From Takakia lepidozioides (Eukaryota > Plantae > Bryophyta), in NCBI GenBank assembly GCA_030704615.1, contig CM060731.1, positions 7,440,001 to 7,504,000 on the forward strand: a DNA stretch of 64,000 bases, in the 5' to 3' direction. The notes beneath the pieces are model-generated. The model saw only the letters and a program-made list of their open reading frames with translations. It was not told where the DNA came from and searched no databases. Position numbers and translations under genes: made by a program. Position 1 is the stretch's first letter. Each line of letters starts with the position of its first letter. Shown here piece by piece: positions 1,736-38,131 of the stretch.

Positions 1736-2158
1736 CACCAGCAATCGAAAGAATCACTCGGGACGGGAAATCTGGAACCTGAATGGGTTGCATTGTTCCG
1801 AAACAACATTGCGGCCAGTCTTGATGAGCACAACTTGGTTGTCTGACCGTTTTAACTAACAGTCCTGGCACTTGTCAGTGCGAACGTTCCTGTCTGCACC
1901 GAGAATACTGCTGGATCCACCCTCAGGAGAAACTGTCAGGAGATGTTATTTCGTCGCCGAATCGGCCATCATTGTCATACTTACTGGCTATGGAATCAAA
2001 CCTCCCACCTTCATGCATGTAGCTTGAAACAATACTTTCCACTTCAATGTGCGACTTCCAATCGTCGATGGACTCCGCAGATCCACTTAGATGGTGCCTG
2101 TGAGCCTTGGTCTGTCGCTATACTGAACCTCGCACTTGCCAACTCCGTGCGGTGTTCG

Positions 2159-10249: not shown

Positions 10250-12144
10250 TGTCAAGTTATTTTACCACTAGTGTGAAACTAGCTAGGAAATAGCTAGCTT
10301 TTACATATTGACATTTGGGATTGGCTCAAGTGTCAATCCAAGGGTCAAGGCAGATTTAGGCCCTGGAGTGGTTATCTTCACGGCAAGCGCGGGAGGCTCA
10401 TTTTTCTTGAGTTGAGCCTCACCGCGCCTAGCTATGGCGCCGTAGTGTGGATTCCCCATGGCGTGGGGTGCACTTGGCTTGACTTGTATTTGAGTGATGA
10501 GGTTATATATGCATGAGTTTATGCTTCAGCTTTGTGAGCTCGCATGAGCTTGTGCTTGTATTCTTCTTCGTTATCACTCGAGAAAGATCAGCTCGAGTCT
10601 GTGAGTGCCATGTTCGAGTTGTTTTGTAGCACTTGTGTTTTCATGAGAAGCGGTTCAGCCTAGAGTGCAGGGATCCGTGCATGAGCCTATCCAAAGTGGA
10701 TAGAGTGCAAAGGCGAACAGGTTGCAGGTTTGCAATGGATAGAGAGGCGGGTAGCCTATGTTGAAGAGCGGCGTTGCATAGCTCAACGCTATGGAAACCA
10801 AGTTTGGGCTTCTAGTATGAAGCGGGGGAGATGCTGGTCTCGAGTGGGTGAACTGGTGGTCGTCTTCTTCAGCTGCAGGCCAAGTTAAGGAGCTACAGCA
10901 ATGTGGAGCTGCGAGGGTGTTAGATGTAAGTCACAGTTATCGGGAGCTCCAACTTCAAGCTCATAAGGAGGTATGAGTGAAGAGAGATGGCTGATTTCTC
11001 TTGTATGCAAGCCAATGCATTTGTGGCTATGTTGAGTTGGGGGTTTCAATTTGAAACTCCAGCAGTATGAGGGCTCTTGCCATGGCAAGAGCGGGGCTGG
11101 AACAAGAGCTAAGAGGTGTGGCAAGGCCATGGAATGTGCACCTAGGGTTTCAGAGCTTGGAAAAAAGTTCTTGCACCACAAGAGGAGTGTCTTGTGGCTG
11201 GAAATGTAAACCTTAGGGTTTCAGGAGCTTGGCAAGGGCTGTGGAATGCTTAGTCTTGTCTTAGAGAGCATCAAGGAGCCAAGGAGCCAAGATAGGGGGC
11301 TGATATCTCTTATGTGAAGAGGTTGCATGTGTGGAGCATGTATTCAGCTCATTGAAGCTTCCATCTTCAAGCTTGGAGGGCAAGCAAGGAAGAGGGAAGG
11401 GCTGACTTCCCTTATGTGAGGGCAATGCATGTGTGGAGCATGCTATCAGCCTGGTGAAGGCTTGCACTTTCAGGTGTGGGAGTGCAAGAAAGGAAGGAAG
11501 GGGCTGGTTTCCCTGTAGGGCATGTGGAGCATGCTTTCAGCCTGCTGAAGCTTGTATTTTCAGGTTTGTGGGTGCAAGAAATGAAGCAAAGGAGCTGATT
11601 CTCTTATGGTGAGAGTGGGGCATGTGTGGAGCATGCCTTCAGCCCATTGAGGCTCTTGTTTTCAAGCTTTAGAGAGCTAGAACGGAAGGTCTAGGGCTGG
11701 TTTCCACTTGGAGTGAAAGAAAAGCACTTGTAGGGCCTATGTGAGTTGGGGTTTCAACTTCAAGCTTGAAGGGAGCGCAACTCTTGAAGAAGCAGGTGTA
11801 GGGGGCTGGAATAGGCTCTAAGACAAATGCTATGGCCAAGGAGAGTGCTTGAATGAGTGCTCACAAGGGCTGGGAACCAGCAGGGCTTGGTTGTTTGCCA
11901 TTGAGTTTAGTAGCGTGTTTGGGGAGGCTAAGTGAGAAAGAAGGCTTGGTTTGTGGCAACCACCTCATGGCTTAGGGCTACTAAGATGGTGTGTGGGAGC
12001 CGAAAGAGCAAGAATACCTTGCTGATTTCCTCACAACCGCCATAGCTCGGTGGAAAGAAGCCTAGAGTCCAAGAGACACAAACCTTAGCTTGGCGTGGCT
12101 AAACCCCTTGGAGAAATGGCTAAACTGCCAGAGCGGCCATGGAT

Positions 12145-13330
12145 GGGGCTGTGACGGGCTGTGAGGGCCTGTGAGGGCCTGTGCTGGTGGCCTTTGGGGC
12201 TGTGACGGGCTGTGAGAGGCTGTGAGAGGCTATGCCCATGGCCTTTGGGGCTGTGATGGGCTGTGAGGGGCTGTGACAAGCCGTGCCTGAGGCCTTTGGG
12301 GTTGTGAGGGGCTGTGTCAGGCCGTGCCTGAGGCCTTTGGGGCTGTGAGGGGCTGTGACAGGCTGTGCCCTGTGGCCTGTGGGGCTGTGATGGGCTGTGA
12401 CAGGCGGTGGCGAGCTGTGATGGGCTGTGATGGGCTGTGACAGGCTGTGGCGGGCTGTGACAGGCTATGCCCAGTGGCCTGTGGGGCTGTGACGGGCTGT
12501 GCGGGGCTGTGTGACAGGCTGTGCCTTGTGGCTTGTGGGGCTGTGACGGCCTGTGACAGGCTGTGGCGAACTGTGACAGGCTGTGATGGGCTGTGGCAGG
12601 CTGTGACAGGCTGTGCCTTGCGGCCTGTGGGGCTGTGACGGGCTGTGACAGGTTGTGGCGAGCTGTGACGGGCTATGAGGGACTGTGACAAGCTGTGCCC
12701 AGTGGCGTGTGGGGCTGTGACGGGCTATGAGGGGCCGTGACAGGCTGTGCCCTGTGCCCTGTGGGGCTGTGACGGGATGTGATGGGATGTGACAGGCTGT
12801 GATGGGCTGTGATGGGCTGTGGCGAGCTGTGACAGGCTGTGCCATGCGGCCTGTGGGGCTGTGATGGGCTATAAGGGGCTGTGACAGGCTGTGGTGAGCT
12901 GTGGCGAGCTATGATGGGCTGTGAGGGGCTGTGACAGGCTGTGGCCTGTGGCCTGTGGGCTGTGAAGGGCTGTGAGGGGCTGTGCCCAGTGGCCTGTGGG
13001 GCTGTGAGGGGCTGTGAGGGGCTGTGGCCTTTGGGGCTGTGACCCCTGTGACCTGTGTTGGGCTGTGACAGGCTGTGCCCTGTGGCCTATGGGGCTGTGA
13101 TAGGTTGTGGCCTTTGGGGCTGTGACCCTGTGACCTTTGTAGGGCTGTGATAGGCTGTGCCTGTGGCCTTTGGGGTTGTGATGGGCTGTGACAGGCTGCG
13201 GCCTGTGGGGCTATGACCCAGTGACCTGTGTAGGGCTGTGACAGGCTGTGGCCTGTGAGCTATGTGGGCCTGTGCTGGTCTGTGGTGGCCCGTGTTGACC
13301 TGTGGACGGCCTGTGCTGACTCGTGGAGGC
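12145..13330. repeat. Degenerate ~10-bp minisatellite (GGCTGTGA-NN) in the retroelement 5'UTR
   Basis: Roughly 1.2 kb of repeated GGCTGTGACG / GGCTGTGAGG / GGCCTGTG units. Confidence 0.95.
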
Positions 13331-13989: not shown

Positions 13990-16743
13990 TTGAGTGTCAA
14001 CACGGAGGTGCCACTAGTTGCTAGGGACAGTGCCGGTTCGAGCACTAGCGATACTAGTGGGTACACGAGACGAGGTGTGCGGTTTAGGCCACCTTCACCT
14101 CCTGTGTCTTCTACGGAAGGTTCTTATTCGGATTGTGAATCAGGAGGACTTATACCGGCGGTGCAAGTTGTTTCTTTGCCATTGTTGTGGGACACAATGG
14201 AGGAGATGTATGGAGCTACCAAGGGGCCACGAAGGTACTCTGGGGCGGTGGGCACCATCGAGTTGGATGATTTTATCCAAGAGTTTGATAGTTGGTGTGA
14301 TTTGCAGCAAATGCGCAATCCACAACTATTTACACCTTTCATGGCATGGAAGGGGCTGTTTCAGCACCTTGAAGGGCCGCCTATGGATGATTACCATGAG
14401 TTCAAGCGGGGGCATGAGGTTGAGATCGAGAGTGGAGGATGTACTGGTCACCTGACTATGTCTCCATCATTAGGGGCACTAGAGCCACGAGGGCAGTGGC
14501 TACACCTGCCGCTGCACCGGCAGCTTCAGCAAGTAGCAGTGGGACTAGTGGGACTGGTGGTACAGTAGCTACGACGTCCACCCAAGCCACTACCGCACCA
14601 GCACTAGTACCCGTGCCTGCCTTCAACCCTGTTGTGGAGTTATTCGAAGAGTTGAGAGGGAACTACCAAGGGGTGAGGACAGAGAAGTTACGGAGCTTGC
14701 AAGAGTTCCAACGGAAGCCGACCGAGAGCTTGAGGGAGGCTTTCACTCGCATGAGGTGCTTGATAAATGTAACCCAAGGGGTTACGGAATCTCAGGCAGT
14801 CCAATTCTGGTATGGGATATTGGACAAGGAGCTGAGGAGAAGGGTGCGGGATGCAACTCTCCTACAAGCGGCCCAAACCCACCTTAGCAAATGTATTTTG
14901 CTGGCAGAGCGGATAGAGCTCAACATGGTGGAGGAACGAGTGGTCATGGTGGGATTTGCTTAGGAGACACCACGGGGGTAGTGGTGCTCCTAGCCAACCA
15001 CTACCTCAACGTGCTCAAGGCAACAAGGGGGCTCAGGTGAAGCTCAGGGAAGGGCAGAGAGGACCTCAGATGCAGGGGTCTCTCCCTTCATTTGCTGGCC
15101 AACAACAGGCGGATGTGGTGTGCTGGACATGTGGAGGACCCCATGTCAAGAAGGATTGCCCAGAGGGAGGCAAAGGGCCGGCACATGCACAGCCTGCACA
15201 GTTGCAGTGTGGGCATTGTGGCAAGCACGGGCATGGAGAGGCCCAGTGTTATGGTTTGCATCCTGAGTTGCACCCAAGCCAGTTCCAAGGGAACAATGGT
15301 GGCCGGGGGCGAGGTGGAGCAGCCCAGAGAGGACGAGGTGGCCAGCCACGAGGTGCAGGCCAAGGGCAAGCTCAACATGGCCAATGACGCGGAGGTCAGG
15401 GTGTTGACCAAGGCATGGCCAACCGGCTTCAGCAGCTAGAGCAGAGGCTCGCTGCCATGGCTACAGCTCAGGTGGTACCGGCTCTAAGGCCGGATGGTCC
15501 ACCTCCTGCTCCTGAGGGAGGAGATATGGGAGGCATGGGATTCATGTGTGGAGCAGCACTACCACTAGTGCAGGTGGAGTCTGCTACAGCCGTGACTCGA
15601 GGAGCAACATGAGTTCCTGAGCCACGAGGTGCAGAGGTGGAGTTGGATCCACAGCGTGGGGAGGCAAGCCGTCAGGCGAGGCTTCCTCAGTCATTCACAT
15701 TGGCGGAGACAGTGTCGACGCCATCCATGGCACCTAGTTCTCGCCCGACTATTACGAGGCGGAGGTTACTATGTCATTGGGGAGAGCTACACGGGTAGCA
15801 CCACTACCTAGTGTTGCCAAGGCTACGGCAGCTAGTGTGCTGCTAGGAGCGGCCACATCTGTGTGCCAGGCTCCATTGTTCTTGGCTACCATGATTGCGA
15901 CGCCGGGGGTAAGACCAGCTGAGGTGTTCAGGCTGGCAGCTACACTCTGTGAGAGTGGGGAGGTTACTTCATCTTCTGCGGAGATAGTGGGAGGTGTAGT
16001 GCCGGAGGGATCCTCGGATTTGAGGGTCAAGATTGCCATGGCGGCGCCATGGCAAGCTGCAGCTGCCAGGTTGATGGAGCTGCCAGCTAGGCCAGCCATT
16101 GAGCGCGCCATGGTGACACCTGGAGTTGTCATGTTAGACAACCAGGATGACATTTTCTATTTGAGTGGACCGGCAGGCAAGAGGTACCGACCACTGCGGG
16201 TCTTGTTGGACTCGGGAGCTCAGCCATTGATGCTGGACAGAGCTACTATTGCAGGCTTGGGCCTCACGGAGGCGGATATGGAGCCTTGTCCTTTCCAGAT
16301 ACAGACGTCTCTGGGAGGATTGGAGCAGGCTCGGGGCATGACACGGCGTGAGTTGGCTATCAGACTATGGCCGGATCACCCTACAGATGGCTCAATGATG
16401 CGAGCCAAGGCCATTGTAATAGACGCGGTCTCATACGATGTCCTGGCTGGTGGGCAGAGTGTTGTACCCCATGGGCTTCACCCTGGATTTTTGGGAGGAG
16501 TCAGCTTCCTATAGGCCTGCATGGCAGTCAGGGGAGGGCCGACATGTGCAGCTCCATGTGACGTTCATAGGAGGAGTTGCGGTTGCCCAGCGAGGCAAGA
16601 TGCCGACACTAGCAGCATTCACAGCGGCAGTGAGTTGGCCTAGAGAGTTGCTTGAGGGCAACGCTCATTCAGAGGATGTGCCACCTCCGGGAGAGCAGGA
16701 TGACATGTATGGTATGGCGGAGTTGCCTACCATGGTTGCTTAG
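13990..16743 (+). pseudogene. gag (two zinc knuckles) plus aspartic protease, frameshifted
   Basis: PRRYSG...DDFIQEF; FQRKPTESLREAFTRM; CWTCGGPHVKKDC and CGHCGKHGHGEAQC; protease motif VLLDSGA. Confidence 0.9.
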
Positions 16744-16920
16744 ACTCCATTGTGGGGCACGAGCAAGGATTTGCAGCGGGATGCTGATCAACGGGTGCAA
16801 CAAGCCTGGGTGGAGGCTTTTGTACCATCAGGAGAGGAGGAGAGTGCGGGGATTGCACCAGGACCACCTCAGTTGTCTCCATTGGACACCACACCTATTG
16901 TGTGGCAGTATCCGGATGAA

Positions 16921-17875
16921 GGCATTTGTCTTCTGGACTTGTTTGGCGGGATCAGCACCGGATTGGCTGTTGTGTTACAGGCAGGTGTACGAGTTTGGCG
17001 TTACCTGTATGTGGAGAGGGATGAGACTGCACAACTCATTTCACTTCGCCATATTGCTCAGTTGGTGCAGCGGTACCCTGAGTTGTTGCCGGTGTCTGCA
17101 GTTCGTGGATATCAGCAGGCCTTGCCAGCAGACATTTCGTTGCTGGGGGCGCAGGATTTGGAGCGGGTTGGCTCCATTGATCTGGTAGTGGCAGGATGGC
17201 CCTGCCAAGGGCATTCATCAGCTGGGTATGGCAATGGATTGCAAGACTCGAGGTCGGGTCTGTTTTGGGAGATGGTGCGGGTTTTGCGCCACTTGCAGAT
17301 TCATCAAGCTGTATCTCCAGCATACATCTTGGAGAATGTGCCACTGATGGGCGATTCTCGGGCCAGGGTGATGGCCAGTGTGCATCAAGTCCAGTCGTGG
17401 CTTGGGTCAGCAGTGTTGCTAGATGCAGCTACAGTGGGGTCATGGGCTCATCGTCCACGGCTATGGTGGACTAACTTGATGCCACCCGCACTGCTCAAGC
17501 GTGCATTTGATGGGTGGCAGCGGCCAGCACATCTCACAGTGGATAGCATTCTGGACACAGGGAGGCAGTCTCAGCGTGTGAGACACGATGACCGTTCGCC
17601 TTTGGCAGTGGTCAACAAGGTGGGTCAACCACGAGCAGCATTACCTACACTGCTAAGTTTCCCAGGATCGCATGCTTTCAGGGATAGTGGACCTGGCCTC
17701 TTGTGGGATGCTCAGTTGCAGCAGTTAGTGGAGCCTAATGCTAACAAGCGTGAGTGGACAATGGGTTTTACCACTGGTACCACAGCGGTGTTGTCTCTTT
17801 CTGAGGCATCACGTTGTCAAGTGTTGGGGCAAGCAATGGATCTCAATTGCTTGACCTGGATTATCAGCTTGGCTA
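16921..17875 (+). CDS. DNMT3-like C5 cytosine methyltransferase domain inside the retrotransposon polyprotein (uninterrupted frame)
   Basis: Motif I LDLFGG, II YVE, IV AGWPCQ (PCQ at 17200-17208), VI ILENV, VIII AHRPRLWWTNL, IX/X MGF...LGQAM. Confidence 0.93.
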
Positions 17876-18259
17876 TGGTGAGCAACGCAGAGTGCGGAGA
17901 GTACACTTCCCTCGATGGTCTCTCTGCCTACCGAGACGGTACAGGCAGTGAGGTGGGGGTGAGCATGTGAGGACCACGGGGTGCATGCATCTGGCACACG
18001 TGGGAGGTGCTCGAGGTTCAGAGGGGAGTTGGCAGCCAAGGTGGCGATGAAAGATGAGGTTGGGGATTTTCTCGGGTGGAGGAAAGTCCTTGAGGATGAG
18101 ATGATGGGCAAGATGAGGCCTTGTCACTGACTGAGCAGGTAGGGAGTACTGCTCAAGAGGTTGCAACATAGCAACCACTGGACGCGTCCTCGACCTCTAA
18201 GCCCACTGGACTTAGGGTTGCAGTTACGGAGGACAATTGGGAGCCTGACATTGGACCCA

Positions 18260-19993
18260 TTGTCACCGGAGGAGAGAGACGACGTATACGGCAGTTCCTG
18301 AGGGCTTATAGGAATTGCTTGCCTTCAGTTTGAAGGACTTGGGACACGGAAGGGTCAAGAGATCCATATTGAGTTGGCCACTGACACGCCAATCTTTCGG
18401 AGACCCTATAGATACAGTGACATGGAGGGGTCTTTGATTCAGATGAGGACTCAAGATCTCTGGGAGGCTGGTTTGGTGGAGCTCTTGATGGAGAGTATGC
18501 TTCAGCCACAGTGATGCCAGCCAAGAAGGATGTCTATGGCAATGGACGGAGAGACGTATGTGCGGTGATTACCGGCCTGTAAATCGTCAGACCAAGTCGA
18601 TAAGTATGCCATGCCAACAAGAGGAGATCTTTGATGCCATCGGGCATGCTAAGGTCTTTAGCACTTTGGATTTACGATCGGATGTTACCAGTTGCCAATC
18701 AAGGAGGCGGAACAAGCAGAAGACGGCATTCTGGGGGATCAATGAGCATGTCAAGGATTGCCTATATCAGTGGCCGGTTCTTACCATGTGGGCTTCTTTA
18801 AGAATGCTCCTGCAGAGTTCAAAGAGGTCATGGATAGGACTAGCAGGGGTGTGGACTTTGCTCGGTGCTACATAGATGACACATCATCATCTTTAGTGTT
18901 ACGATGGAGGAGCTGGAGAGACACTTCAGGTGGTTATTGGAGCGCTTAAGAAGCGACGGATTGAAGTTGCATCCGGGGAAGTGCAAGTTTTTCCACAACC
19001 AGATTGGTATCTGTCACCTGATATATCCTAGAGGATTGGGGGTATACAGCAGACTAAGGTAGAGGCCATTGCCAAATTCCACGCCCCACGGATGTGAGCC
19101 GAGTTCGAGCTTTCATGGGGTTGGCCAATACTAGTGACGGATTGTCAAGGGATTTAGTACCATTGCAAAGGCTCTAACCAAGCTGACCAAGGTGGACCAG
19201 AGTGGCAGTGGGAAGATGAGCAGAGGAACGCGCTTTTCAAGAGCTCAGGGCAGGTTGACCTCGGCGCCTATCCTGAGACGACCTATCAGGGCGCGTCCCT
19301 TTCAGCTGCATACGGATTGGAGCATGATGGGGCTTGGAGCGGTCCTCACCAGGTGGATGATGAGGGAAGAGAGTTGTAGTGGCTTATGCTAGCCGCTTCG
19401 AACAACGCTGCAGAGGCTAAGTACAGCTCATATGAGGGAGAATGCTTAGCTGCAATGTGGGCCGTGGCACACTTCAGGTGCTATCTATACGGCAATCTTT
19501 TCACCCTTGTCATGGCTCACCAACCACTCAAGTGGTTGATGGAGTCAGACAAGCTTACGGGGAAGCTTGCACGGTGGGCACTCATACTCCGGAGTATGAC
19601 GTTCAGGTTGTGCATCGACCGGGTTTGGTCAATCGGGATGCGGATGGATTGAGTCGCAATCCATGCATGAGCCAGCAGGATGACACTGGAGCTCGGTGGC
19701 ATGGTGAGATAGACAAGGAGATGGTGCAGGGATGGCACGCATCTGCATTTTTGTGTATCTTGGCATCGGGAGGTCAGGTTGGACCTACAACATGGATGGC
19801 TGTAGACGGAGGACCCTGAGGCTATCGATGAGCCAGGTGGTGCCAGAGATATACATGAGGATTCGGCTGTGTTGGACTGCATCCGCACGGGAGACACGGC
19901 AGCCACTGTGACTGCCAGGGAGAGGGATCGGATCCTGCAACGAGCCAGAGGTTCAAGTGGGAGGGGATACACCTACTTCGAGTGTGGGAGGAT
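18260..19993 (+). pseudogene. RT, RNase H and integrase N-terminus, heavily frameshifted
   Basis: RMCGDYRPVN, FSTLDL, KTAF, NAPAEF, YIDD, LHTDWS, YSSYEGECLA, HQPLKWL, NRDADGLSR. Confidence 0.9.
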
Positions 19994-20999
19994 ATTGGGA
20001 ATTCATTTGGTTCCATGTGCCAAGTGAGGTGAAGAACCTCACTTGGGACGTGGGGAGTCCACGTGAGACATAGGCAGGCTCATCTTCTTCTAGTCGAGCC
20101 TCTCGAGGCCTTTTTCGCCGCCATAGCTCTAGTACTTGAGATGGAGAGTGGGTGAGATCTGTATGGTGGAGTCCTTTAGCAAAGGTGCCATTGGCTTGAC
20201 TTATATAACGTGATAGAGTGGGTTCACCTCTTGTCACCATTTCCGTATCACTAGAAGAAGACCTGACTGACATCGATGGTGCAAGGTGTTAGAATAGTGA
20301 GAATTGTGTGGAGGAGAGCTTGATAGATAGCTCTTAAGTTAAAAGGTGATGCAGGGTTTGTAAGAAGAAAGTCTTGTGGTGTGTATGTACAAGAAGAGGT
20401 CTTCAAGGAGAGCCCCATTGAAAAGTTTGAGAGCTTGTGAAAAAAACTCTTTGTTCTGCAAGTGTTGCAGGGTTTGAGGAGTTCAAGAAGAGCTGGGTGT
20501 TGTTAAGGAAGCAAGCGGTGCATGTGTGGAGCATGGTTTCAGCTTGTGGGAGTCTTCAACTTCAAGCTTACAAGAGCTATGAGTAGAGGTAGACATCTGA
20601 TTTCTCTTTGGGGCAGAATAGTGTATTTGTAGAGCATGCTTTGAGTTGGGGTTTCAATCCCAAGCTTGGGAAGAGCATGTCTATGGAAGTGGCAAGTGCA
20701 GGGCTGGATTAGGAGCTCTAAGAGGTGCACTATGGCCATGGAAGGAAACACTATGAGTGCATGCAATGGCTAGAAGAGGGTATGCCATAGAAAGCTCAAT
20801 AGCTTGTTCTATGCTTGTTTCAATAAGTTCCATAGAGAAAGAGAGCTTGTTGTGTGGCAAATAGCTTACTCAGGGAGTTAGAGGCACTCTTGGTGGTCTA
20901 TTGATGCTCAAGAAACCAAGAACAACACCTCTGGTTGCTCCATAGAAGCCATAGCTTGTTGCAGCAATCGCAGAGGCAAAGCGGCGCAAACCCTAGCTT

Positions 21000-22150
21000 G
21001 GGACCGCGTGGGAACGCTTGGAAACGCGTGTGAACTCCTTGGGAACTCCTTGGGAACTCGTGGGAACGCATGGGAACGCATAGGAACATTGCCCCAGAGT
21101 TGGGAGCACCACCATTGTCCCATCGGATGAACTATTGAGCCAGTGGATGAAAATCAGAGCTTCTGGATGAGAATCGGTTGCAGTGGATGAAATATTGTCA
21201 ACGGATGAACTATCGTGCTTGGATGAAACTGCGCACAGCGGATGAAATCTCATCAGCGGATGAACTATCGCACTATCGGATGAAAAATTGTGGTGACGGA
21301 TGAAACTGCGTTAGTGGATGAACTATCGTGCCATTGGATGAAAAATCACGGCGACGGATGAAATATCGCACCGACGGAGACCTGTGGATGAGAAATCGTG
21401 GTTTTGGATGAAATTTGGTTAGTGACGGATGAAAAATCGACTGACTGTGGATATTTTTGGAGCATGTTGGGGGCTTGTTTGAGGACTATTTGGGGTCTAC
21501 TGAGGCCAATATCTAACAGGTATTGGGGCCTGTTTGAGGACTATTTGGGGTCTATTGAGGCCAATATCTAACAGGTATTGGGGCCTGCTTTGGGGTCTAT
21601 TGAGGCCAATATCTTGCAGGTATTGGGGTCTGTTTTGAGGACTATTGGGGGTCTATTGAAGCCAATATCTTGCAGGCTTGTGGAGCCTGCTTGGGGCTGT
21701 TTGAAGGACTATTTGGGGTCCTTTGAGGCCAATGTTTTGCAAGCCTGTGGAGCCTTGTGAGGGCTGGTTGGAGGACGATTGGAGGTCCTTGGAGTCCCAT
21801 ATTGGGCAGGCTTATGGAGTTTTCTAAGAGCTCTTTGGGGGACTATTGGAGGTCCTTGGGAGCAAATACTTGACAGATTTGAGGAGCTTCTTAAGGGCTG
21901 TTGGAGGACTGTTGGAGGTCCTTGGAGGCTAATACTTGGCAGATTTGAGGAGCTTCTTAAGGGCTGTTGGAGAACTGTTGGAGGTCCTTGGAGGCCAATA
22001 CTTGGCAGATTTGTAGAGCTTTTTAAGGGCTGTTTGGAGGACTCTTGGAGGTCTTTTGAGGTCATATTGGGCAGGCTTGTGGAGCCATTGTGAGGGCTGG
22101 TTGGAGACCTTGGAGGCCACTAATTGGCGGGCGCCTAGGGCCTTTTGGTG
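21000..22150. repeat. Stacked tandem repeats in the family B 5'UTR (GGGAAC[GT]C ~11 bp; GGATGAAA ~21 bp; ~40-60 bp GAGGCCAATA units)
   Basis: Directly visible repeats at 21000-21090, 21125-21450 and 21470-22150. Confidence 0.85.
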
Positions 22151-22902
22151 GACTGTTTGAAGTCCAAGTTTGCGAACTTCTTGAACCTCGGTGGGTCTAT
22201 GTTAGGGGCTGATTGAGGGCACATTTCAGAAGTTCATGGCAATAATTTGAGGGCTCTTGAGAGTTATTTGAGAGGTTCTTTAAGGATAGTCTTGTCTATT
22301 GCTCGAGCAAGAGTGAGTATGAAGATAGGGGGAGTAATGGGATGAGAGCATTCTGGGCTTAGATATTGCTTTAGCTTCCCTTCTCTATAGTCTTCCATTA
22401 TCTTTGTAGGCCAAAGCTTTTCCGTAAGCGGAGGCAGAGCTAGTTTGGAAAGAGACTTGGTCATCTTGCAGGTTTATTGGAGTAGCAAGGAGATCGATTG
22501 ATTTAAGTGTGGGAAGTGTTGTTGTTTGAGTTTTCTGTGTTTGGATCCTCCTCCCACACATGCATGCTTGACTGTGCGCCATGCTAGTTTGGTTTGGGCG
22601 CTTGCTTTTATAGGTGGTTGTGCCGGAAATATTGTGGCCGGCCAATTCTAGAGCATGCTGTCGGTGGTGAGGCTGGGGTGATAACCAGCAGACCATCATT
22701 GTTTCTCGTATGGTGAGGTTGGGTTGATGACCAGCAGACCATAGGAGTGCCTGGTGCAGGTGCAGGTGCAGGTGCAGGTTCAGGTTAGGAATATAGTATT
22801 CCAAACCATAAGCCGCAACAGGTTCTCTACCCAGCTACCTTGTGGAAAGAGGGATTAGAGACAAGTTGATAGTCGGTTTGAGTGTGAGTTTTCATCACGG
22901 AG

Positions 22903-25900
22903 GTGCCACCAGTTGCTGAGGAGAGTACCGGTACGAGCACCAGCGATACTAGTGGGTATACAAGACGAGGTGTGCGGTTTAGGCCAACTTCACCTTCAGT
23001 GTCTTCTAAGGAAGGTTCAGACTCGGAGGTAGGAGGATTCTCGCCGAGGGTACAAGCCATTTCCGTGCCATTGTTGTGGGATACGATGGAGGAAATGTAT
23101 GGAGCTACTAAGGGGCCACGTCGGTACTCTGGAGCTGTGGGCACCATCGAGCTTGATGATTTCATACAAGAGTTTGATAGTTGGTGTGATTTGCAGCAGA
23201 TGCACAATCCACAACTGTTTACGCCTTTTATGGCGTGGAAGGGGCTGTTTTAGCACCTTGAGGGGCCGCCTATGGATGACTATCATGAGTTTAGGCGGGG
23301 AAATGAGGTGGAGATTAAGGAGTAGCGATCCTGACTATGTCTCCATCACTAGAGGCACAAGGGCAACGGTGACACCAGCAGCGACACCAACATCCCCAAC
23401 TGCAAGCACTAGTAGTGGGACAAGTAAAGATGGAGCTGGGAAATCCACTCAAGCTCCTGCTGCAGCACCAGCACCCGTGCCTGACTTTAACCCAGTTGTG
23501 GAGTTCTTCGAGGAGTTGAAGAGAAACTACCAGGGGATAAAGACGGAGAAATTGCGGAGCTTGCAAGAGTTCCAGCGCAAGCCTACTGAGAGTTTGAGGG
23601 AGGCTTACACGCGCATGAGGCGATTGATAAATGTAACCCAAGGGGTTACGGAAGCTCAAGCAGTCCAATTCTGGTATGGGATATTGGACAAGGAGCTGAG
23701 GAGAAGGGTGCGAGATGCAACTCTCCTACAAGTGGACCAACCCACCTTAGCAAACGTGTTTTTGCTGGCAGAGCGGATAGAGCTCAATATGGTGGAGGAG
23801 TGAGTGGTCATGGTGGGGTTTGGTAAGGAGACACAACGAAGCGGGGCTCCTAGCCAACAACAACCACTACCCCAATGTGCTCAAGGCAACAAGGGGGCTC
23901 AGGTAAAGCCCAGGGAAGGACAGAGATGATCTCAATTGCAGAGGTCACTTCCTTCATTCTCAGGCCAACAATAGTCGGGTGACATGTTGGGATTGTGGAG
24001 GACCCCATGTTAAGAGAGATTGCCCGGAGAGAGGCAAAGGGCCGGCACAGGCACAGCCTATACAACTACAGTGTGGGCATTGTGGCAAGTATGGGCATGA
24101 AGAGGCCCATTGTTATGACTTGCATCCTGAGCTACGGCCAGGCCAGTTCCAAGGGAACAATGGTGACCGAGGACGTGACAATGTAGTCCAGAGAGGTAGA
24201 GGAGGCAGAGGTCGTGGTGGAGGTCGTAACCAAAACCAAGGAGCACAGGGTCAAGGTCAAGGTCATGACCAAAGCATGGTGGATAGGCTTGCCCAGCTAG
24301 AGCAACGTCTTGCTACCATGGCCACTACTCATGTTGCGCCAGCTCCAAGGCCTGAGGTTCAAGTCCCACCTGCACAACCTCCTATGCCTAGGGAAGACCA
24401 GATTGGTATGGGCTTCATGTGTGGAGCCGCACTTGCAGGACCATTGCATGTGGACTCTGTAGCTATTGTCACTCGAGCAGCAACGCGTGCTCCTGAGCCA
24501 AGAGGAGCACATGTGGATTTTGATCCACAAAGAGGGGAAGCAAGTCAACAGACAAGGCTTCCACAGTCTTTCACATTGGCTGAGACAGTGCCAACTACGC
24601 CATCGATGGTACCCGCTCGCCCAAGTGTGTCCGAGGTAGAGCCACGAGTGCCAGTGGGGAGAATTGGTGTGGTTCGGGAAATGCCAGTGGGTGGTGCTGC
24701 AAAGCAAGGTGCAGCCAGTACATTGTTGGGGGCGGCTACGGAAATTTGCCACGCTCCATTGTTTTCTGCCATGACCATTGCAATGCCGGGGATTCGGCCA
24801 GCTGTTGTGTTCAGACTAGCAGCTAGACTCTGTGAGAGTGGTGATGCATCGGCACTATCTGCGGGGATAGCGGATAGTGCATGGATGCCCTGGACTCAAG
24901 GGTGAAGACAGCCACAGCTGCACCATGGCAAGCGGCAGTTGCAAGGTTGCAGGAGTTGCCAGCTAGACCAGCCATTGAGCGTAGTATGGTGACTTCTGGG
25001 GTAGTCCTGGTGGACAATCAGGATGATATGTTTTAGTTGGGTGGCCCAGCCGGGAGGAGGTTTAGACCACTGCGGGTCTTGTTGGACTCGGGAGCACAGC
25101 CATTGATGTTGGGAAGAGCAGCAATTGCAGGCTTGGGCCTTACAAAGGCGGATTTGGAGCCTTGTCCTTTCCAAATTCAAACATCTTTGGGCGGTTCAGA
25201 GAAGACACGAGGGATTATACGCCATGAGCTCTTCATTTGATTACAGCCGGATCATCCTACGGACGGCTCAGTCATGAGAGCTAAAGCTAGTGTTACGGAC
25301 GCGATGTCCTATGATGTGTTTGTTGGTGGGGCGGTGTTATACCCCATGGGATTCACTCTGGACTTTTGGAAGGAAACGACATCCTACAGGCCGGAATGGC
25401 AGTCAGGAGATGGCCGACGTGCACTGCTCCCAGTGCGGTTTATTGGGAATGTAGCAGTGGATCATAGGAACATGATGCCCACATTGGCTGCATTCTCAGG
25501 GGTGGTGGCTTGGGGTGGTGAGCTCTTGGAGGGCAATAGCCATGCAAATGATAGGCCATCACCTGATGAGGACAAACAATTGGCATACAAGGCTGATTTG
25601 CTTCCTCATGTGCCTGTGCATATTCCACTGTGGGGTACGGTTGGGAATTTGCATCGAGTAGCAGGCGAGTGTGTGCACCAAGCATGGCAGGAGGCCTTTC
25701 CATTGATGAGTGAGGGGAGTTCAGTGACATCACCTGGACCTCCTGAGTTAGCTCCTTTGGACACAGTGCCCATTACCTGGCAACCATCTGACTCAGGGAT
25801 TTGTTTGCTAGACCTGTTTGGAGGCATGAATACTGGGCTTGCAGGAGTGTTGCAAGCAGGGATTAAAGTACGCAAGTACTTGTATGTGGAGAAGGATGAG

Positions 25901-28900
25901 ATAGCTCGGCGTATTTCTATGCGCCACATCGCCTTGCTCACACACCAGTATCCTGAGTTGTTGTCTCTCTCAGCAATTCAAGGGTATCAAAAGGCTTTGC
26001 CAGCAGACATTACCTTGCTGGGGGCGGATGATTTGGACCGGCATGGTTCCATTGACTTGGTGATAGCTGGATGGCCTTGCCAATGACACTCTCCCGCAGG
26101 TCATGGGAATGGCTTGCATGATGCACGATTGCATTTGTTTTGGGAGATGTTGCGAGTTTTGCGGGACTTGCAGACGAGGCAAGTGCAACCTCTAGGCTAT
26201 ATCTTGGAGAATGTTCCTCTTATGGGGGATTTTCGGGCCAGGGTTATGGCCAGTGTGCATCAAGTGCGGTCTTGGATTGGATCGGCGGTGCTATTGGATG
26301 CAGTAGCGGTGGGATCACGCGCGCATCGACCTCGATTGTGGTGGACCAATCTTGCACCACCAGAGCTGCTCAAGAGAGCATACGATTCCATTCAACGGCC
26401 ACCCAATCTCGCGGTTGAGGGCATTTTGGACCAAGGGAGGCAACCACAGAGAGTGCGACATGATGATCGTCCACCTCTAACAGTGGTCAATCGAGTGGGG
26501 CAACCACGTGCGGCCTTGCCTACACTCATGAGCTTTCCCTTGTCTCATGCTTTCCAAGACAATGGTCCTGGGTTGATTTGGGATAGTGTGCTACAACAAT
26601 TGGTGGAGCCCAATGCGGATGAGCGAGAGCGGGCAATGGGATTTGCCACCGGCACTACAGATGTGTCAGCTCTGTCAGAGGCATCATGCTGCCAAGTGTT
26701 GGGTCAAGCAATGGATCTAAATTGCTTGACATGGGTCATTGGCTTGTGCATGGCTGAGCAACGGAGATTGCAAGCATTGATGGCTACTTCTGCACTCCCA
26801 TTGGATAGTGCATCCTCCCTACGAACTGGGATGGTTGAGGCAGTGAGTGGGGGCGAGCATAAGATCATGGGTTGCAAACACCCATGGCAAATGTGGGATG
26901 ATATACGCAAAGAGAGAGTCATTGGATCTCTCAAGCAGCAGTATGAGGAGTGGGGAGAGCCATGGACTGAGGATCAGTTGGAGGCCAAGGTGGCCAAGGT
27001 TTTTGAAGAGGTTGAGAATGTTTCTTGCTCAGAGGATGTTCTCAAGGTGGCTATGGCGGAGCAAGTGGAGACTACGCCACAGTCAGATTGGGCGGACAAG
27101 GCCCAAGATGTTGCTATCTAGCAACCAAAGGATTCGTCTTCGACCTCCAAGCCTGGTGTACCCAAGGTTGCAGTCACTGAGGACAATTAGGAACCAGATG
27201 TTGGACCTACAGTCACCGGAGGAGAGAGACGGAGGATCCAGCAGTTTCTAAGGGCTTATAGAAATTGCTTTGCCTTCGGTTTGAAGGATTTGGGGAGTTT
27301 GAAGGGTCGGGAGATTCGTATTGATTTGGCAAGTGACACACCAATCTTTCGAAGGCCCTACCGGTATAGTGACATGGAGAGGTCATTGATCTAGTCACGG
27401 ACTATGGAGTTGTTTGAAGCTGGATTGGTGGAGTTGTCAGGCGGGGAGTATGCGTCGGCAACGGTGATGCCAGCTAAGAAGGATATCTATGGCAATTGGA
27501 CAGAAAGAAGGATGTGTGGGGACTATTGTCCTGTGAACCGTCAGACTAAGTCCTATAGATATGCCAAGCCAACTCCAGAGGAGATCTTTGATGCTATTGG
27601 GCATGCAAAGGTGTTTAGCACATTGGACTTGCGATCCGGTTACCACCAGTTGCCAATCAAAGAGGCTGACAAGCAAAAGACGGCATTCTGGGGGATTGAC
27701 CAACACGGGAAGGATTGTTTGTACCAATGGCGGTTCTTACCGTTTGGGTTGAAGAATGCTCCTGCAGAGTTTCAGAGGGTCATGGATAGGATTCTCGCGG
27801 GGCTAGACTTCGCCCGGTGCTACAGTGACGACATCATCGTCTTTAGTGCTACGGTTGATGAGCATACGGTTGAGACACCTTCAGGTGGTGTTTGAGCGCT
27901 TGAGAGCGCACGGGTTGAAACTGCACCCCGGAAAGTGCAAGTTCTTCCACAATCAGATTGAGTATATGGGCCACATGATATACCCTGGAGGATTGGGTGT
28001 TCAATAGACAAAGGTAGAGGCCATTGCATGCATTCCACGTCCCATGGATGTGAGCAGAGTTCGTGCTTTCATGGGATTGGCAAACTACTATCGACGGTTT
28101 GTCAAGGGATTTAGTAGCATTGCAAAGGCTCTTACCAAGTTGACCAAGGTGGGTCAAGATCGGCAGTGGGAGGAGGAGCAAGAGAAAGCCTTTGAGGAAC
28201 TCAATGCTCGATTGACTTCTGCACCTATTTTGAGGCGGCCTATTCGGGGGCGGCCTTTCTAGCTACATACGGATTGGAGTATGCTGGGGATTGGAGCAGT
28301 GCTCACACAGGTGGATGATGAGGGAAGAGAGTTCGTAGTGGCATATGCTAGCCGCTCGAACAATGATGCCGATGCGAAGTATAGTTCCTATGAAGGGGAG
28401 TGTCTAGCTGCGGTATGGGCAGTGGCACATTTCAGATGCTACCTCTATGGCAATCTCTTCACCCTTGTCACGGATCACCAACCATTGAAGTGGTTGATGG
28501 AGTCAGACAAGCTTACAGGGAAGCTTGCACGGTGGGCACTTATGCTTCAAGAGTACGACTTCCAGGTGGTGCATCGAGCCGGTATTGTCAATCGGAATGC
28601 AGATGGATTGAGTCGTAATCCATGCACAAGCGAGCATGATGATACTGGAGCTCGGTGGCATGGTGAGATAGATGAGGAGATGGTGCCAGGATGGCATGCA
28701 TCGACCTTTTTGTGCATTCTAGCAATGGGAGCTCAAGCTGGTCCATCCCATGCGATTGGTCATATAGATAGCATGCATGACGATCCAGAGACTAGTGAGG
28801 AGTTTGGTGGTGCTAAGGATATGCATGAAGATGAAGCAGTGTTGGCATACCTTCGTACCGGAGAGATAGCAGCCAGTGTGACTACTAATGAGAAGAATCG

Positions 28901-29816
28901 GGTCCTACAACGAGGCAAGAGGTTCAAGTGGTATGGGACTCACCTACTCCGGGTATGGGAGGATGAACGAGTGAGGATTGTGTCTCATCCAACACAACGA
29001 GCGCGATTGGTACGCCATGCCCACGAGGAGTTGGGACATTTTGGGGTGCGGCGCACTCATAGTTTGCTGCAAGGGTAGTATTGGTGGCGGGGCATGCATA
29101 CGGATATGCAGCAGTTAGTGGCAAGGACACCTAGGAGATTGGGACCTTCAATTGCCTTGGCTAGCTATGGGCTATAGGTTCAGCAAACAAGCTTCACTTG
29201 CCTCCTTCTCACCTTACTTTCTTCTCTTCGGCCGAGAGCCGGATTTGCCTGCATCTATTCATAGGGAGGCTGCAGTAGTTCTCAACCTTGATGATCCAGA
29301 TGTGTGGTCACAAGCATGTGCCCAGCGGGCAGAGCTGTTCAAGAGAGTCATGCCTATGGCTTTTGAGAACCTTGCTATTGCCCAACACCGAGACACATTG
29401 AGGTACGCTACTATACGTGAGAGGGGATATCGGCCAAATGTTCGGCGTTTCCACCCTGGGAACCTACGACCTTGGATGTCACAGCAAGACGTGTGATTCT
29501 AAGGGTCAGGGAGGTGTTGCCTTCAGGAGTGTTGATTCTGAAGGGTCGAGATAGCATGGTATGGAAGGACCATGTGCGCAATTGTGCGTCATGTCACCTT
29601 CCACATGTGGATGGGAGGATAGATCCCAACCTTGCAGTGGTACCTGCAGGGTTGCATTGCATGCTATGTGGGCATGCTGGTGGCACCGCAACCATGTTGG
29701 TGTATGACAAATGCTCAAGGGGGTGGCACACGAGATGCTTGACACCGCCACTTGAGGAGGTTCCTATCGGAGAATGGTTGTGTCCACGATGCCTTGGACA
29801 GAGGTGGTGGGCATGA
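22903..29816 (+). pseudogene. Family B polyprotein remnant gag-PR-DNMT-RT-RH-IN-PHD
   Basis: Zinc knuckles, VLLDSGA, DNMT motifs, YSDD, RNase H, HEELGHFG and PHD. Many TAG/TGA stops. The integrase core is deleted at ~29123. Confidence 0.92.
25796..26745 (+). pseudogene. Second DNMT3-like domain (stop codon right after PCQ)
   Basis: LDLFGG, AGWPCQ* (TGA at 26084-26086), ILENV, AHRPRLWWTNL, ERERAMGF...LGQAM. Confidence 0.92.
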
Positions 29817-32134
29817 CAATGGTGAGGCGGACAAATGATCCAAGGTCTAGCTAGTGGGGCTTCAATGCCATGGATACTCAACTGAAGATCATGGATTGCA
29901 TAAAGCATGATGAAGGCGACTAACGATGGGGCTATGTTTGCACCCGGCCTCTTGATCTATCGACTTCAAGTGTTGGGACTTGTGCGATTGAAGACCAAGT
30001 GATGATCTTATTGGGGTGGATACTTGCAAGCTATCCGGTGTTAGAGGGAGCTAATCACCAGCTAGGGGGGCGATTGTGGCGTGGCTTTCTAGGACTATAT
30101 GCTAGGAAGTGTGGTTGGACAGCGATGTATGTTGTGGCATGATGCTTAGGTGCACGACAGTTGTCATGGTTTTGTTTGTGATTAGTTAGAAATAGTTATT
30201 TCTAGCTAATTAGGACATTACACATTTATATTTGTATTTTGTTGGCATTGGGACTTCATTTGGTTCCATGTGCCAAGTGAGGTGGTGAACCTCACTTGGG
30301 ACGTGGGGAGGATGCCCCGAGCCTGCTCTGATCCTCCCAGAGATGTCTATATCTGGAAAGGGCACGGCTCCATATCCGCCTCCGTGAGGCCCAAGCCTGC
30401 AATAGCAGCTCTACCCAGCATCAATGGCTGAGCTCCTGAGTCCAGCAAGACTCGTAGTGGCCGGTACCTCTTGCCTGCCGGTCCACTCAAACAGAAAATG
30501 TCATCTTGGTTGTCTAACATGTCAACTCCAGGTGTCACCATGGCGCGCTCAATGGCTGGCCTAGCTGGCAGCTCCATCAACCTGGCAGCTGCAGCTTGCC
30601 ATGGCGCCGCCGTGGCAGTCTTGACCCTCACATCCGAGGATCCCTCCGGCACTACACCTTCCACTATCTCCGCAGAAGATGAAGTAACCTCCCCACTCTC
30701 ACAGAGTGTAGCTGCCAGCCTGAACACCTCAGCTGGTCTTACCCCCGGCGTCGCAATCATGGTAGCCGAGAACAATAGAGCCTGACACACAGATGTGGCC
30801 GCCCCCAGCAGCACACTAGCTGCCATAGCCTTGGCAACACTAGGTAGTGGTGCTGCCCGTATAGCTCTCCCCAATGGCATAGTAACCTCCGCCTCAGTAA
30901 CAGTCGGGCGAGAACTAGGTGCCATAGATGGCGTCGACACCATCTCCGCCAATGTAAATGACTGAGGAAGCCTGGCCTGACGGATTGCCTCCCCACGCTA
31001 TGGATCCAACTCCACCTCCGCACCCCGTGGCTTAGGAACTCGTGCTGCTCCTCGAGTCACTGCCGTAGGTGACCCCACTTGCACTAGTGGTAGTCCTGCC
31101 CCGCACATAGTGGTAGTGGTAGTGTTGCCCGGCACTAGTGGTAGTGGTGCCCCACCCACAGTGGTAGTGGTAGTGGCACCCCTCACCTACGGCACATCAC
31201 GGCCACTGTTCCCTGCATGCCCTAGAACTCCCAACGAGTTCCAATGCGTTCCCGGACGTTCCCACACATTCCCGAGCTCTCCCCCAGTTGGGGTTTGCTC
31301 CTGCACCTGCTGCCGACGAGCTATGGCTTCTACGGAGCCATCAGCCCCGTCGCCCTCCACTCTTGAGCTCTCACGGCCCACTAGAAGCACCCCCAACTCA
31401 ACAAGTAAGCAACATGCTGCCCAACAAGCTCCATTTCTTCATGAAGCTCACAAAAAATGAATATGAAAATACACACATTTACAAACTTGGTGCACATGCA
31501 CTTCTCATGCATATCCCCTAGCTCTAGGACGTCTCGCTGCTGCCCTTCCAGCCCCGCTCTTGCCACTCCAAGAGCACTTACACTGCTGAGTTTCAGATTG
31601 AAACTCCAACTCAGCACATGCTTCACAAGTGCACTGATTTGCACACAAGAGGGACCAGCCCCCTCTCTTCACTCATACCTCTTCATGAGCTTGGAGCTGA
31701 AGCAGTGTAGCTACGGCGTGAGCCCAGCCCCGTGAGCCTGGGAGCTGAGCTCACGCTTCAAGGAAGCGTGAGCGGCACAAATGTGCTGGAGAAGCAGGCC
31801 CTATAGGCGAGGATTGCAGGAAGAGTACCTATTACTGTGGACAAACGTGGACAAAACAAAGGGGCCACCATGCACCATGTCTGCACAAAAAGAGGAATAT
31901 GAACATATGGCAGATTTGAGCTCAGAATGATTGTCACATTCAATTCACAGATAGACACCTGTTTGTGCCCCCCTGGTTCCGCAAATAAAATGTATGTGGT
32001 TGTCCTACATGCAAAGACTCCACACGATAAGCTGGAAACCAGCACGGGAAGTGGGCATGGCTCGTTTTTGTTCACACAGAATCTGGCAGAGCCCCACGGC
32101 AGGTGTCCCGCTGCAGAAGAGTGATGACCTCTCC

Positions 32135-34250
32135 TTAGCCTAGTGTGGCTTGGTGAATGAATTGGTCTCTCTTACTGTCGCAACACATAATTATAAGGTA
32201 TATGTAATATTGATGCTTGCAGGGGACGCACTTCCCTCTCATGCCGAGAGCGTCCTCACGCATCGTTACAAAATCTGGATAGGTGCACGCAGGGAAATTC
32301 CCCACGGTAACCTGATATTCTTTGCCATGTACTGAGCCAGTAGACAACACTGTGTAAATCCGTCCATACCCCGGGGGCGGGACTTCGGTGATACGTGTCA
32401 CCTGAGCCTGCAAAATTCTAGCCGATTCCATCTTATAGTCGTGATCTGCACCCGAAGCGACACAGCGCACTGTTTTTCCATCTCTTTTTGTTGGGTGGGA
32501 GTCGGCACTGGGTGGATGCATTGCCGGATCATGTGGCACATCTGTGCCTAGAGTGCATGAGGGCACCAAACCGTGCAAGGCGGAACCCTCCCTCCTCCAG
32601 CATGCTTATCTCGGTTGATGATAGTGACGTCCCAAGTTTCACAGGTCAAATTGCGGGCGAATGGGGCTTCATTATCACCGATGGACGAACTGTTCACTTG
32701 ACGCATCGTGCCATATCATTTGGGCAGAACCAGAACTTCCAGTCCTTTGACTCCCCACTATGATAAGGTCGGAACAACCCTGTGAATGTTGGAGCTGGAG
32801 TCCCCCTGGAGCCTTTACATATTTTTGATTTGCATTTCTTGAAAGAGGGGGTCCGAATTGCCATGCAAGCCGCTCTAGATCCTGGTGGGGTGCGTTCTAT
32901 ATGCCACTCAGTGTCAATGCAATCAGATTCTTGCACCAAGGACACCACCTCCTCCAATGGGATTCCTGCTGCTGTGCTTGCATGATTTGCACCTGCTCCA
33001 CTGGAAGAGGATCCACCTGGGAAGGGGCGGGCACATGACTTAGTCTGCACCAGAGACACCTTAGGTACAGAGAAATTGACCCTGTCCGGGCGATAGGAAT
33101 CTCCATCTGACCTTGGAGGAGTGTTCAATTTCCTTTTGCATGATCCAAATGTTTCCTCGCCTTCCAAATGGGGGACCCTGGATTGCAAAGGGGAGCCTTC
33201 AGTGCACCTGTTCAGAGCTCTCGCCATCTTTGATGGGTCTCCGGACCTGCTCGTAGCCCTTAGCATCAACAAAGTCATATCAGGGCCCTTGCCTCCGCCC
33301 CGTCCCATCAGAAAATTGCGGTATCTGGTTTGTTGTGTACCATGTCATCAGCAGTGACAACATACAAGTCAAGTCCTGCTTTGGTAGACTGCTGCATCCA
33401 GGCGTTGTGAACAGTCTCCGCCAAATTACAGGAAGGCATGTCGGCCAAGTCCTCCAAGGACATGTCCTACAGGAGGCATTGAACGCAAATGTGAGGAACG
33501 AAAGGAAATGGAAGAGGTTCTGCAAGTGACAATCCAACAAGCCCAAAGGAACAGGCACGATGCAAAGTGAAATTTGTGTTTCTGGGATTGAAAAGCATAC
33601 CGTCATCATGAAAGCTCCCCATTGTCTGTACCTGAAGTGCCAGAAAACCAACCAGTCCTCCAACTCCTTCAGTTGGATCCCACTAGCAGCACTAGAGGAG
33701 AACCACCAAGCCCGGATTGCTTGGTAAGTGCTCTCAGCTTCTCCCATTGAGGTGGCATTTTCGTACTCGAGGCAGAGCCTTATGTGCTCCAACTGAAGGT
33801 CAGGTCGAATGCAACGCTTTGTATGACATACCAGAGATTGACTCCAATGGAAGAGGCATGTGCGCTCCCTAATGAACCGTGTCCGTCATGTTTCTTGTCC
33901 ATGCCCTGCAGAAGCCCAGCTAGTCCACTGGAAGACGTGGGAGGGTGGAGCTCAAATGTCCCCGTCAAACTCTACTCCTCCATATTGAACCCTCTACACC
34001 CAAAGAGACTCCCAATCAACAAAACGAAGCTCGCTCTTGCACCCAGGCACACCTGCGAGGGCTTTCAATTTCGGAATGACACTCGTTATCTCCTGGAATT
34101 CGTCATCATCCAAGAATGGAGTCTGGACTACCGGAGGAATCTCAGAAACATCCTCCGAGGACGAGTCTGAAAGAGTCACGAAGGTAGTGGATATGCTCAC
34201 CTCGCGTTTCCCATGAACTGTGTCTTTCTGCTGCACGACCGATGCTGCAG
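32135..34250 (-). pseudogene. MULE transposase remnant (GCM domain and first catalytic Ds deleted; intron 33467-33600)
   Basis: MDKKHDGH is fused to the CxFHW region; FWHFRYRQWG|intron|...CNLAETVHNAW; PAPTF...FWFC; SWIM-like CT..DF...CKHQYY. Confidence 0.88.
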
Positions 34251-34269
34251 TGCCAAGGGTAACTACTAA

Positions 34270-37990: not shown

Positions 37991-38131
37991 CTGGTTTTTT
38001 GTTTGTAAATCAGCTTCCTTCTTGTTCCTCTTCTTGGTGGTTCTCGGATGGAGTTGCATAAGTCGATCAAGTGAATATGTAGGTGCCTGGTTCTCAAGCT
38101 TCTTAGATCCTTCTGGATGTCCATTTCGCAG

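Follow-up and report, generated by a model that had tools for sequence, protein, structure and literature searches.

The closest described relative of the element studied here is KnitGypsy-Dnmt3, which de Mendoza et al. (2018, PMC5890265) presented as an acquisition in the lineage of the alga Klebsormidium nitens, with DIRS-like repeats and a Ka/Ks below 0.2. The same paper describes SymbioDIRS-Dnmt3, which also has split direct repeats and also carries a DNMT3 domain; its domains methylate CG. Other Ty3/gypsy elements with a DNA methyltransferase, DAM-LTR/EpiLTR (bioRxiv 10.64898/2026.05.21.726589), differ in carrying an adenine methylase or a DNMT4-related domain with a chromodomain; the text of that preprint names "streptophytes (Gypsy-DNMT3)", and "streptophytes" is also the wording of papers that came after PMC5890265. 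We analysed a window of 64,000 nt from the moss Takakia lepidozioides (CM060731.1, positions 7,440,001 to 7,504,000; all coordinates below are positions within this window, on the + strand unless stated). It almost certainly contains degenerate copies of a Ty3/gypsy-type retrotransposon that belongs to the KnitGypsy-Dnmt3 lineage. The element has the order gag-protease (PR)-DNMT3-stop-reverse transcriptase (RT)-RNase H (RH)-integrase (IN)-PHD finger and ends of the form A...polypurine tract (PPT)-B-nn-A-B, where A and B are direct repeats. The feature is real and conserved, the copies in the window are dead, and the whole is a land-plant version of a known lineage, of which the replication anatomy is the newer part.

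The likeness to KnitGypsy-Dnmt3 as described in PMC5890265 is extensive: the Gypsy domain set PR-RT-RH-IN with a DDE integrase, a non-permuted DNMT3-like domain in the pol region, the order PR-DNMT-RT, the same RT group, DIRS-like repeats arranged A-coding-B-A-B, and purifying selection. The differences are the land-plant hosts and an in-frame stop between DNMT and RT, found here and in most families, whereas the K. nitens protein KFL_009030040 (PR-DNMT-RT-RH-IN) is one frame. One stopless family resembles KFL_009030040 in having DNMT and RT in one open frame. The text of PMC5890265 makes no mention of target duplication, self-priming, a junction palindrome or readthrough. We found no account in the literature of the bryophyte copies or of their duplication, priming, palindrome or readthrough, although Repbase, subscription papers, preprint supplements and the figures of PMC5890265 may hold some. 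An initial annotation of the window, made from its letters alone, had proposed a DNMT3-like domain inside two gypsy families; it missed the KnitGypsy-Dnmt3 lineage itself, the split repeats, the target duplications, the self-priming site and the readthrough-type stop.

Two copies, elements A and B, carry the domain between protease and RT/RNase H, as mapped with related proteins. In six-frame translation, ordered C5-methyltransferase motifs were found at 16921-17871 in element A (LFGG 16939, GWPCQ 17194, ENV 17332, RPRLWWTN 17452, GQAMD 17827) and, in the same order, at 25796-26746 in element B (25814, 26069, 26207, 26327, 26702). The motif coordinates and the intact PCQ and ENV of the initial annotation therefore stand, but the frames around them do not. 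Copy B has an in-frame TGA (26084-26086) right after PCQ, and both halves have a weak Pfam score or none. Copy A is open from motif I to motif X, but a stop and frameshifts isolate its open reading frame (ORF, 16744-17970) from gag-protease; the first methionine of this ORF is residue 177, downstream of the catalytic Cys at residue 154, so that the domain cannot be made intact on its own. Both copies are dead for these reasons.

The domain is DNMT3-like, judging from its motifs I, IV (PC), VI (ENV), VIII (RxR) and X and from its modelled fold. The copy A ORF matched the PF00145 profile with an E-value of 4.9e-13. A sequence search of the PDB gave 43 matches, of which the first 29 were DNMT3A, B or C (best 1.4e-9), with M.HhaI at 4.7e-4. 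An AlphaFold2 model of the domain, built from a 20-sequence alignment, had a pLDDT of 89.9; among the matches listed in a fold search with this model there were only DNMT3 entries, headed by DNMT3A (6f57, E-value 5.8e-19, TM 0.71). DRM enzymes have a permuted motif order. The order here is non-permuted, so the domain is not DRM-like. Our trees contain no host DNMT3 or DRM sequences; in the published tree the K. nitens copies branch with host DNMT3 and apart from DNMT1, DRM and bacterial enzymes (PMC5890265).

The residues needed for catalysis are widely kept. Among 114 aligned domains (46 rows with the domain after RNase H were dropped as thinning), 108 have the catalytic Cys, 112 have the Glu, and each of the two Arg is found in 108; these residues persist together with the S-adenosylmethionine-binding motifs down to about 35% identity. 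We computed ratios of nonsynonymous to synonymous substitution (dN/dS) by the Nei-Gojobori method on raw copies, skipping stops. Between elements A and B the ratio was 0.119 for DNMT (309 codons), 0.157 for protease and 0.237 for gag. It was 0.118 for DNMT and 0.081 for RT-RH between element B and the metagenome locus L042, and 0.119 and 0.04, respectively, between loci L014 and L043. Across families the DNMT ratio was 0.09-0.12 in six pairs and 0.22 in one (B vs L014). These values are not near 1 and indicate that purifying selection has kept the domain, which was thus retained through family divergence, as first proposed. Two observations weigh against this conclusion: dS was 1.4-2.8 for between-family pairs, which makes the ratios rough, and within-family pairs gave 0.35-0.80 for DNMT, close to the 0.34-0.59 of RT-RH. 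The latter are as expected from decay following insertion.

In live elements the methylase is probably active, on the evidence of this conservation. On the other side, the Pro before the catalytic Cys is replaced by Glu in 42 of the 114 domains, and the K. nitens domain was inactive when tried in yeast, a result that its authors call inconclusive (PMC5890265). Both observations would also fit a domain kept for DNA or RNA binding, or as a passenger, with no catalytic role. We consider this improbable, given the near-constant Cys, Glu and Arg residues, the cofactor-binding motifs and a dN/dS of about 0.12.

Relatives of the element occur in Marchantia polymorpha, M. paleacea, Riccia sorocarpa, Calypogeia fissa, three Sphagnum species, Klebsormidium nitens and Closterium, and the RT-IN-PHD part is matched by a Coleochaete transcript. 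The Marchantia, Riccia, Calypogeia and Sphagnum proteins bear out the suggestion that the range of such elements extends into land plants. A representative protein library contained 244 clusters at E ≤ 1e-30, and a metagenome scan gave 304 related stretches, of which 80 were kept as loci; some of these are the same site in different assemblies (e.g., L039/L042, L049/L051, L063/L064, L076/L079). Viral contigs gave 37 pattern matches and no relatives among them. The order PR-DNMT-RT was found in 52 linkers from metagenome loci as well as in the named genomes, and the family is densely covered in public contigs of the same organism. In these contigs the summed depth of the element tail is about 100 times that of the adjoining long interspersed nuclear element (LINE), which hints at high abundance and is not a copy number. 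Heavy rearrangement of the window and the broken state of all its copies might be expected of a one-off capture of a host DNMT3 or of an assembly artefact; the recurrence of the same order elsewhere and the dense coverage refute both.

In the DNMT tree, window copies A and B are sisters (0.93), the main group of metagenome loci joins a Sphagnum protein (1.0), and the clade of domains lying before RT (0.995) includes the K. nitens protein P0031, which we assume from its architecture to be one of the published copies. We built RT-RH trees with a quick IQ-TREE run on 54 of 169 rows and with FastTree on all 169. In the former, the DNMT-bearing group, with all its 41 rows, was separated from the 13 rows of the outgroup with an SH-like approximate likelihood ratio test (SH-aLRT) value of 99; window copy B grouped with liverwort and peat-moss-like rows (98), and Coleochaete was sister to these (94). 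Most rows inside the group that are labelled as lacking DNMT represent second frames, which begin downstream of the stop. Read together, the trees indicate common descent with the K. nitens element.

Related arrangements were also seen. The same DNMT lies between RNase H and integrase in 55 of 133 proteins that have RT, RH or IN beside DNMT. Members with the domain in this slot (L071:7901-12148; P0023, P0027, P0390) form one RT clade (SH-aLRT 100) that includes a partial protein of Volvox reticuliferus, so a single shift of the domain, and a range that extends into chlorophytes, are likely. Three RT relatives near the DNMT group (P0388, P0392, P0401) have a Dam adenine methylase between protease and RT, and two of them have a PHD before the integrase. 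They are sister to the DNMT group in FastTree, and IQ-TREE gives no resolution; a swap of methylase type between Dam and DNMT in the same slot is possible. The protein P0038 (1417 aa) has a related DNMT together with a Dam domain and is DIRS-like by eye.

DNMT and RT share one reading frame, with a stop at a fixed place between them. In both window copies the stop reads TAG CAA CCA (18169-18177 in A, 27119-27127 in B), which matches UAG-CAR-YYA, the tobamovirus readthrough consensus (PMC3542737). We examined 54 DNMT-RT linkers. Stop-CAR-YYA was present in ten, nine times at the conserved place and once off-site, compared with 3.9% of shuffled linkers; stop-CAA-CY(C/T) was present in 26, three were one further letter off, and two were damaged. 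Several Marchantia proteins end shortly after DNMT. The stop is likely to act as a readthrough signal, to judge by its position and context. Against this, one family has no stop (14 of the 54 linkers, among them the off-site match), which means that elements can do without bulk synthesis of the methylase, and the signal of the main peat-moss-like family ends in C, not A. With a readthrough rate of a few percent, the methylase would be as plentiful as Gag, and RT and integrase would be far scarcer.

The ends of the element are unlike those of ordinary long terminal repeat (LTR) retrotransposons. In both families of the window, repeat A reads TGTCA...TATCA and repeat B reads TTGT...CACGACA, and two equal terminal LTRs are absent: the 5' end is A only, the 3' end B-A-B or B. 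A 3' end consists of a purine tract, B1, two bases, A2 and then B2 directly; in all copies seen, A2 and B2 abut exactly. A third copy, of the alpha family to which element A belongs, shows this at its tail (within 6617-8402), where the integrase end, PHD and PPT (7746-7755) are followed by B1 (7756-7919), an AC spacer, A2 (7922-8238) and B2 (8239-8402). The whole layout A1-gag-PR-DNMT-RT-RH-IN-PHD-PPT-B1-nn-A2-B2, or all of it except a detected gag, is present in six loci. A1 and A2 are 85-92% identical and B1 and B2 85-96%, with about equal divergence in 6/6 full elements, which implies that both pairs were renewed at insertion. Of the repeats and untranslated regions (UTRs) first annotated as different between the two families, only the distal UTR tandem arrays differ wholly, and the ends are split direct repeats.

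The termini, TG...CA, are those of a canonical LTR retrotransposon, which also makes target duplications of 4-6 bp. Among nine loci with both ends, a 4-bp target duplication was perfect in five, matched at three of four positions in three, and was absent in one (L063, 0/4), which counts against the pattern; duplications of 3, 5 or 6 bp did not fit the flanks of these nine. The duplications show no sequence preference. Split direct repeats of the form A1...B1-A2-B2 are shared with PAT, Ngaro and VIPER (PMC6681497) and with SymbioDIRS-Dnmt3. The present element differs from such tyrosine-recombinase retrotransposons in its DDE integrase (rve, H2C2), its TG...CA ends and its 4-bp duplications, and no tyrosine recombinase was matched in the frames scanned, which gave an rve integrase instead. 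The integrase core is deleted in window copy B and whole in L014 and L043. Troyka was rejected, as its CG...CG ends and 3-bp duplication were not found here, and so was a chromovirus, since a PHD finger and no chromodomain follows the integrase.

We found 11 distinct B-A-B forms of the 3' end and seven that stop at B. The latter (L011, L053, L018, L050, L052, L056, L070) end at B1 and have no terminal repeat pair; the two of them with both ends known have perfect 4-bp duplications. This A-internal-B form is undiagnostic: a double cut, a one-LTR circle, B1 x B2 recombination and assembly collapse would all yield it. Locus L014 has B-nn-A and then the primer site at a contig end, possibly from a collapsed or circular assembly, and was left out of the counts.

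No tRNA-type primer site lies directly after A1. Instead, the 12 bases that follow A1 in the alpha family can pair with the stretch at position 153 of repeat A (12 nt exact, reached in 1 of 20,000 shuffles). In element A this site (10577-10588) follows A1 (10250-10576; 86.5-87.8% identical to the other two alpha A repeats) and pairs at 12/12 bases with two A copies, although the primer of its own A1 has decayed to 4 exact nt. The beta family of element B has a different stretch of 11-12 bases after A1, complementary to its own A repeat (11 nt exact, 0 of 20,000 shuffles). Its site (20251-20262) follows an A1 that has lost its 5' part (19994-20250, self-primer 20083-20093) and pairs at 11/11 bases with this A1 and at 12/12 with the copy at 55728. 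Four further families have their own distinct complementary pairs at A positions of about 153-174, with 10-12 of 12 bases matched and 15/15 in L014. The match in L049, which was not above chance (16-23 of 300 shuffles), speaks against the pattern. From this covariation of primer pairs between families, the element very probably primes itself as Tf1 does. Tf1/Sushi, plant Tcn1 and TAR also have no tRNA site and a primer site that pairs with their own 5' repeat (PMC6317226), but their LTRs are ordinary; Tcn1 further has a chromodomain, where the present lineage has a PHD finger and a methylase.

The combination of these signals raises the question of how the split ends arise. The RNA would start about 150-175 nt into A1 and prime itself. 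With a purine tract before B1 and a primer site after A1, ordinary reverse transcription would yield an LTR of B-nn-A at each end of the complementary DNA (cDNA). Compared with this product, the integrated form lacks B on the left and has an additional B on the right. We think it fairly likely that the integrase opens circular cDNA at the B|A junction. This junction is a near-palindrome around CA-nn-TG in 13/13 cases, with 10-16 of 16 positions palindromic, and in 12 of the 13 the spacer is GC or one of its C-to-T/G-to-A derivatives. The cDNA ends would be joined into an A|B junction, and the DDE integrase would cut the left repeat at CA-nn-TG with a 2-nt stagger to produce A-internal-B-A-B; such a cut would leave the 2-nt overhangs of processed ends and account for the TG...CA termini and the duplications. 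By analogy, HIV-1 integrase cuts its own palindromic LTR junction internally (PMC1905944). That cleavage of two-LTR circles likewise occurs at a palindromic junction of two repeat ends, but it is a side route, whereas here it is proposed as the normal route, with the cut inside the LTR equivalent.

One observation argues against junction cleavage. A symmetric two-LTR circle has two junctions and should also give a permuted form, yet B precedes none of 21 5' ends. To account for this, one has to assume in addition that cleavage starts at the left junction, for which its earlier conversion to double-stranded DNA would be a plausible reason. The missing permuted form would also be natural if the split ends came from reverse transcription itself, with extra template jumps via B2 producing a linear A-to-B cDNA that undergoes normal integrase processing and no internal cut; the A2|B2 joint, exact as if templated, would also fit. 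We regard such jumps as rather unlikely, because the PPT at B1 and the primer site at A1 set the ordinary ends at B-start and A-end, not at A-start and B-end, and because the palindrome at the internal junction is conserved and, with its 2-nt spacer, has the geometry of a staggered integrase cut.

As to the methylase, it would be made in bulk as Gag-PR-DNMT, with Pol produced by leaky readthrough, so that many copies are packaged. We favour by a little the element's own cDNA as its main target: the domain would mark CG sites on the new cDNA in the particle, which would then resemble host DNA or arrive pre-silenced. Taken as one scheme, cDNA methylation in the particle followed by opening of the circle at the junction seems to us reasonably likely. 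Base composition does not help this proposal: the observed/expected CpG ratio is 0.48-0.56 in the elements and 0.44-0.77 in the window LINEs, and this overlap means that CpG depletion is no sign of self-methylation. Depletion of CpG and CHG did not tell self-methylation from host methylation. The methylase could instead modify the chromatin of the host, at the insertion site or in its surroundings, under the guidance of the PHD finger that ends the integrase in the window and in relatives; all four intact termini in the window adjoin LINE-like DNA, which may reflect targeting of repeat-rich chromatin. We hold this to be unlikely. The PHD lies downstream of the stop, on the integrase, and protease would likely separate it from the methylase; the target duplications show no preference; and a methylase fused to Gag-PR appears placed for packaging. 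A broader proposal, that circles are the true integration precursor of an old green-lineage, bryophyte-abundant group of integrase-type elements that is self-primed and packages a readthrough-controlled DNMT3 for its own cDNA, is offered tentatively, at somewhat less than even chances.

These results extend a methylase-carrying retrotransposon, described from one alga, to land plants, including Marchantia polymorpha, a model plant for which methylation data and mutants exist and in which the role of the methylase can be tested. It is an old question whether an integrase-type element can normally integrate from circular cDNA, and the end structure is relevant to it. Programs that find LTRs likely miss such elements, since they have no paired LTRs. 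Their open frames go under the label 'hypothetical protein' or are listed as host methyltransferases, and counts of plant DNMT genes may be distorted in consequence.

The remaining parts of elements A and B are as decayed as their methylases, both being riddled with stops and frameshifts. Element A has a 5' UTR tandem array of 10-bp units (12146-13284), frameshifted gag and protease (14197-16566) and an RT-RNase H with many breaks (18235-19993), which ends where the A1 of element B starts; it has no integrase and no 3' end. Element B has 5' UTR tandem arrays of 55-67 bp (21455-22106), frameshifted gag and protease (23086-25441), RT and RNase H (27260-28622), an integrase with its zinc domain followed by a C-terminal PHD finger (28974-29792), and a PPT, B1 (30074-30159), GT spacer and cut A2 start (30162-30310) within 30064-30310. 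The two are 74% identical across 4.5 kb including the proximal 5' UTR, and 78% identical across RT-RNase H. The position between protease and RT given for both in the initial annotation was correct; wholly different UTRs were not found, and with sister DNMTs the two are best read as related subfamilies of the KnitGypsy-Dnmt3 lineage.

Other pieces of the element are scattered in the window. An alpha head lies at 39967-40623 on the - strand (A1 40623-40307, then the primer site). Together with the tail ending at 8402 it is probably one element split by an inversion, as AAGG stands on both flanks and the A repeats are 96.8% identical; continuity of the LINE across this AAGG pair was judged by eye alone. 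An inverted alpha gag-protease fragment (30312-31108, -) is 93% identical to element A, and a beta-family terminus or solo unit, with the 3' part of A followed by B, lies at 55722-55982. LINE pieces with RNase H (8403-10249, 40624-44470, 55983-59213) are antisense to all four intact element termini, which may reflect insertion targeting or mere local abundance of LINEs. A satellite of alternating 117/139-bp units (256-bp period, 34190-38044) lies within an insertion of about 8 kb that splits an alpha 5' UTR. An array of 53-bp units (224-1682) is followed by several overlapping long frames with no Pfam match (1856-5659). On the - strand, a chromovirus integrase tail with SH3 and chromodomain was found at 55042-55821, and a host G-patch gene like DRT111 at 49652-50695, whose nearest atlas clusters are mainly from Streptophyta.

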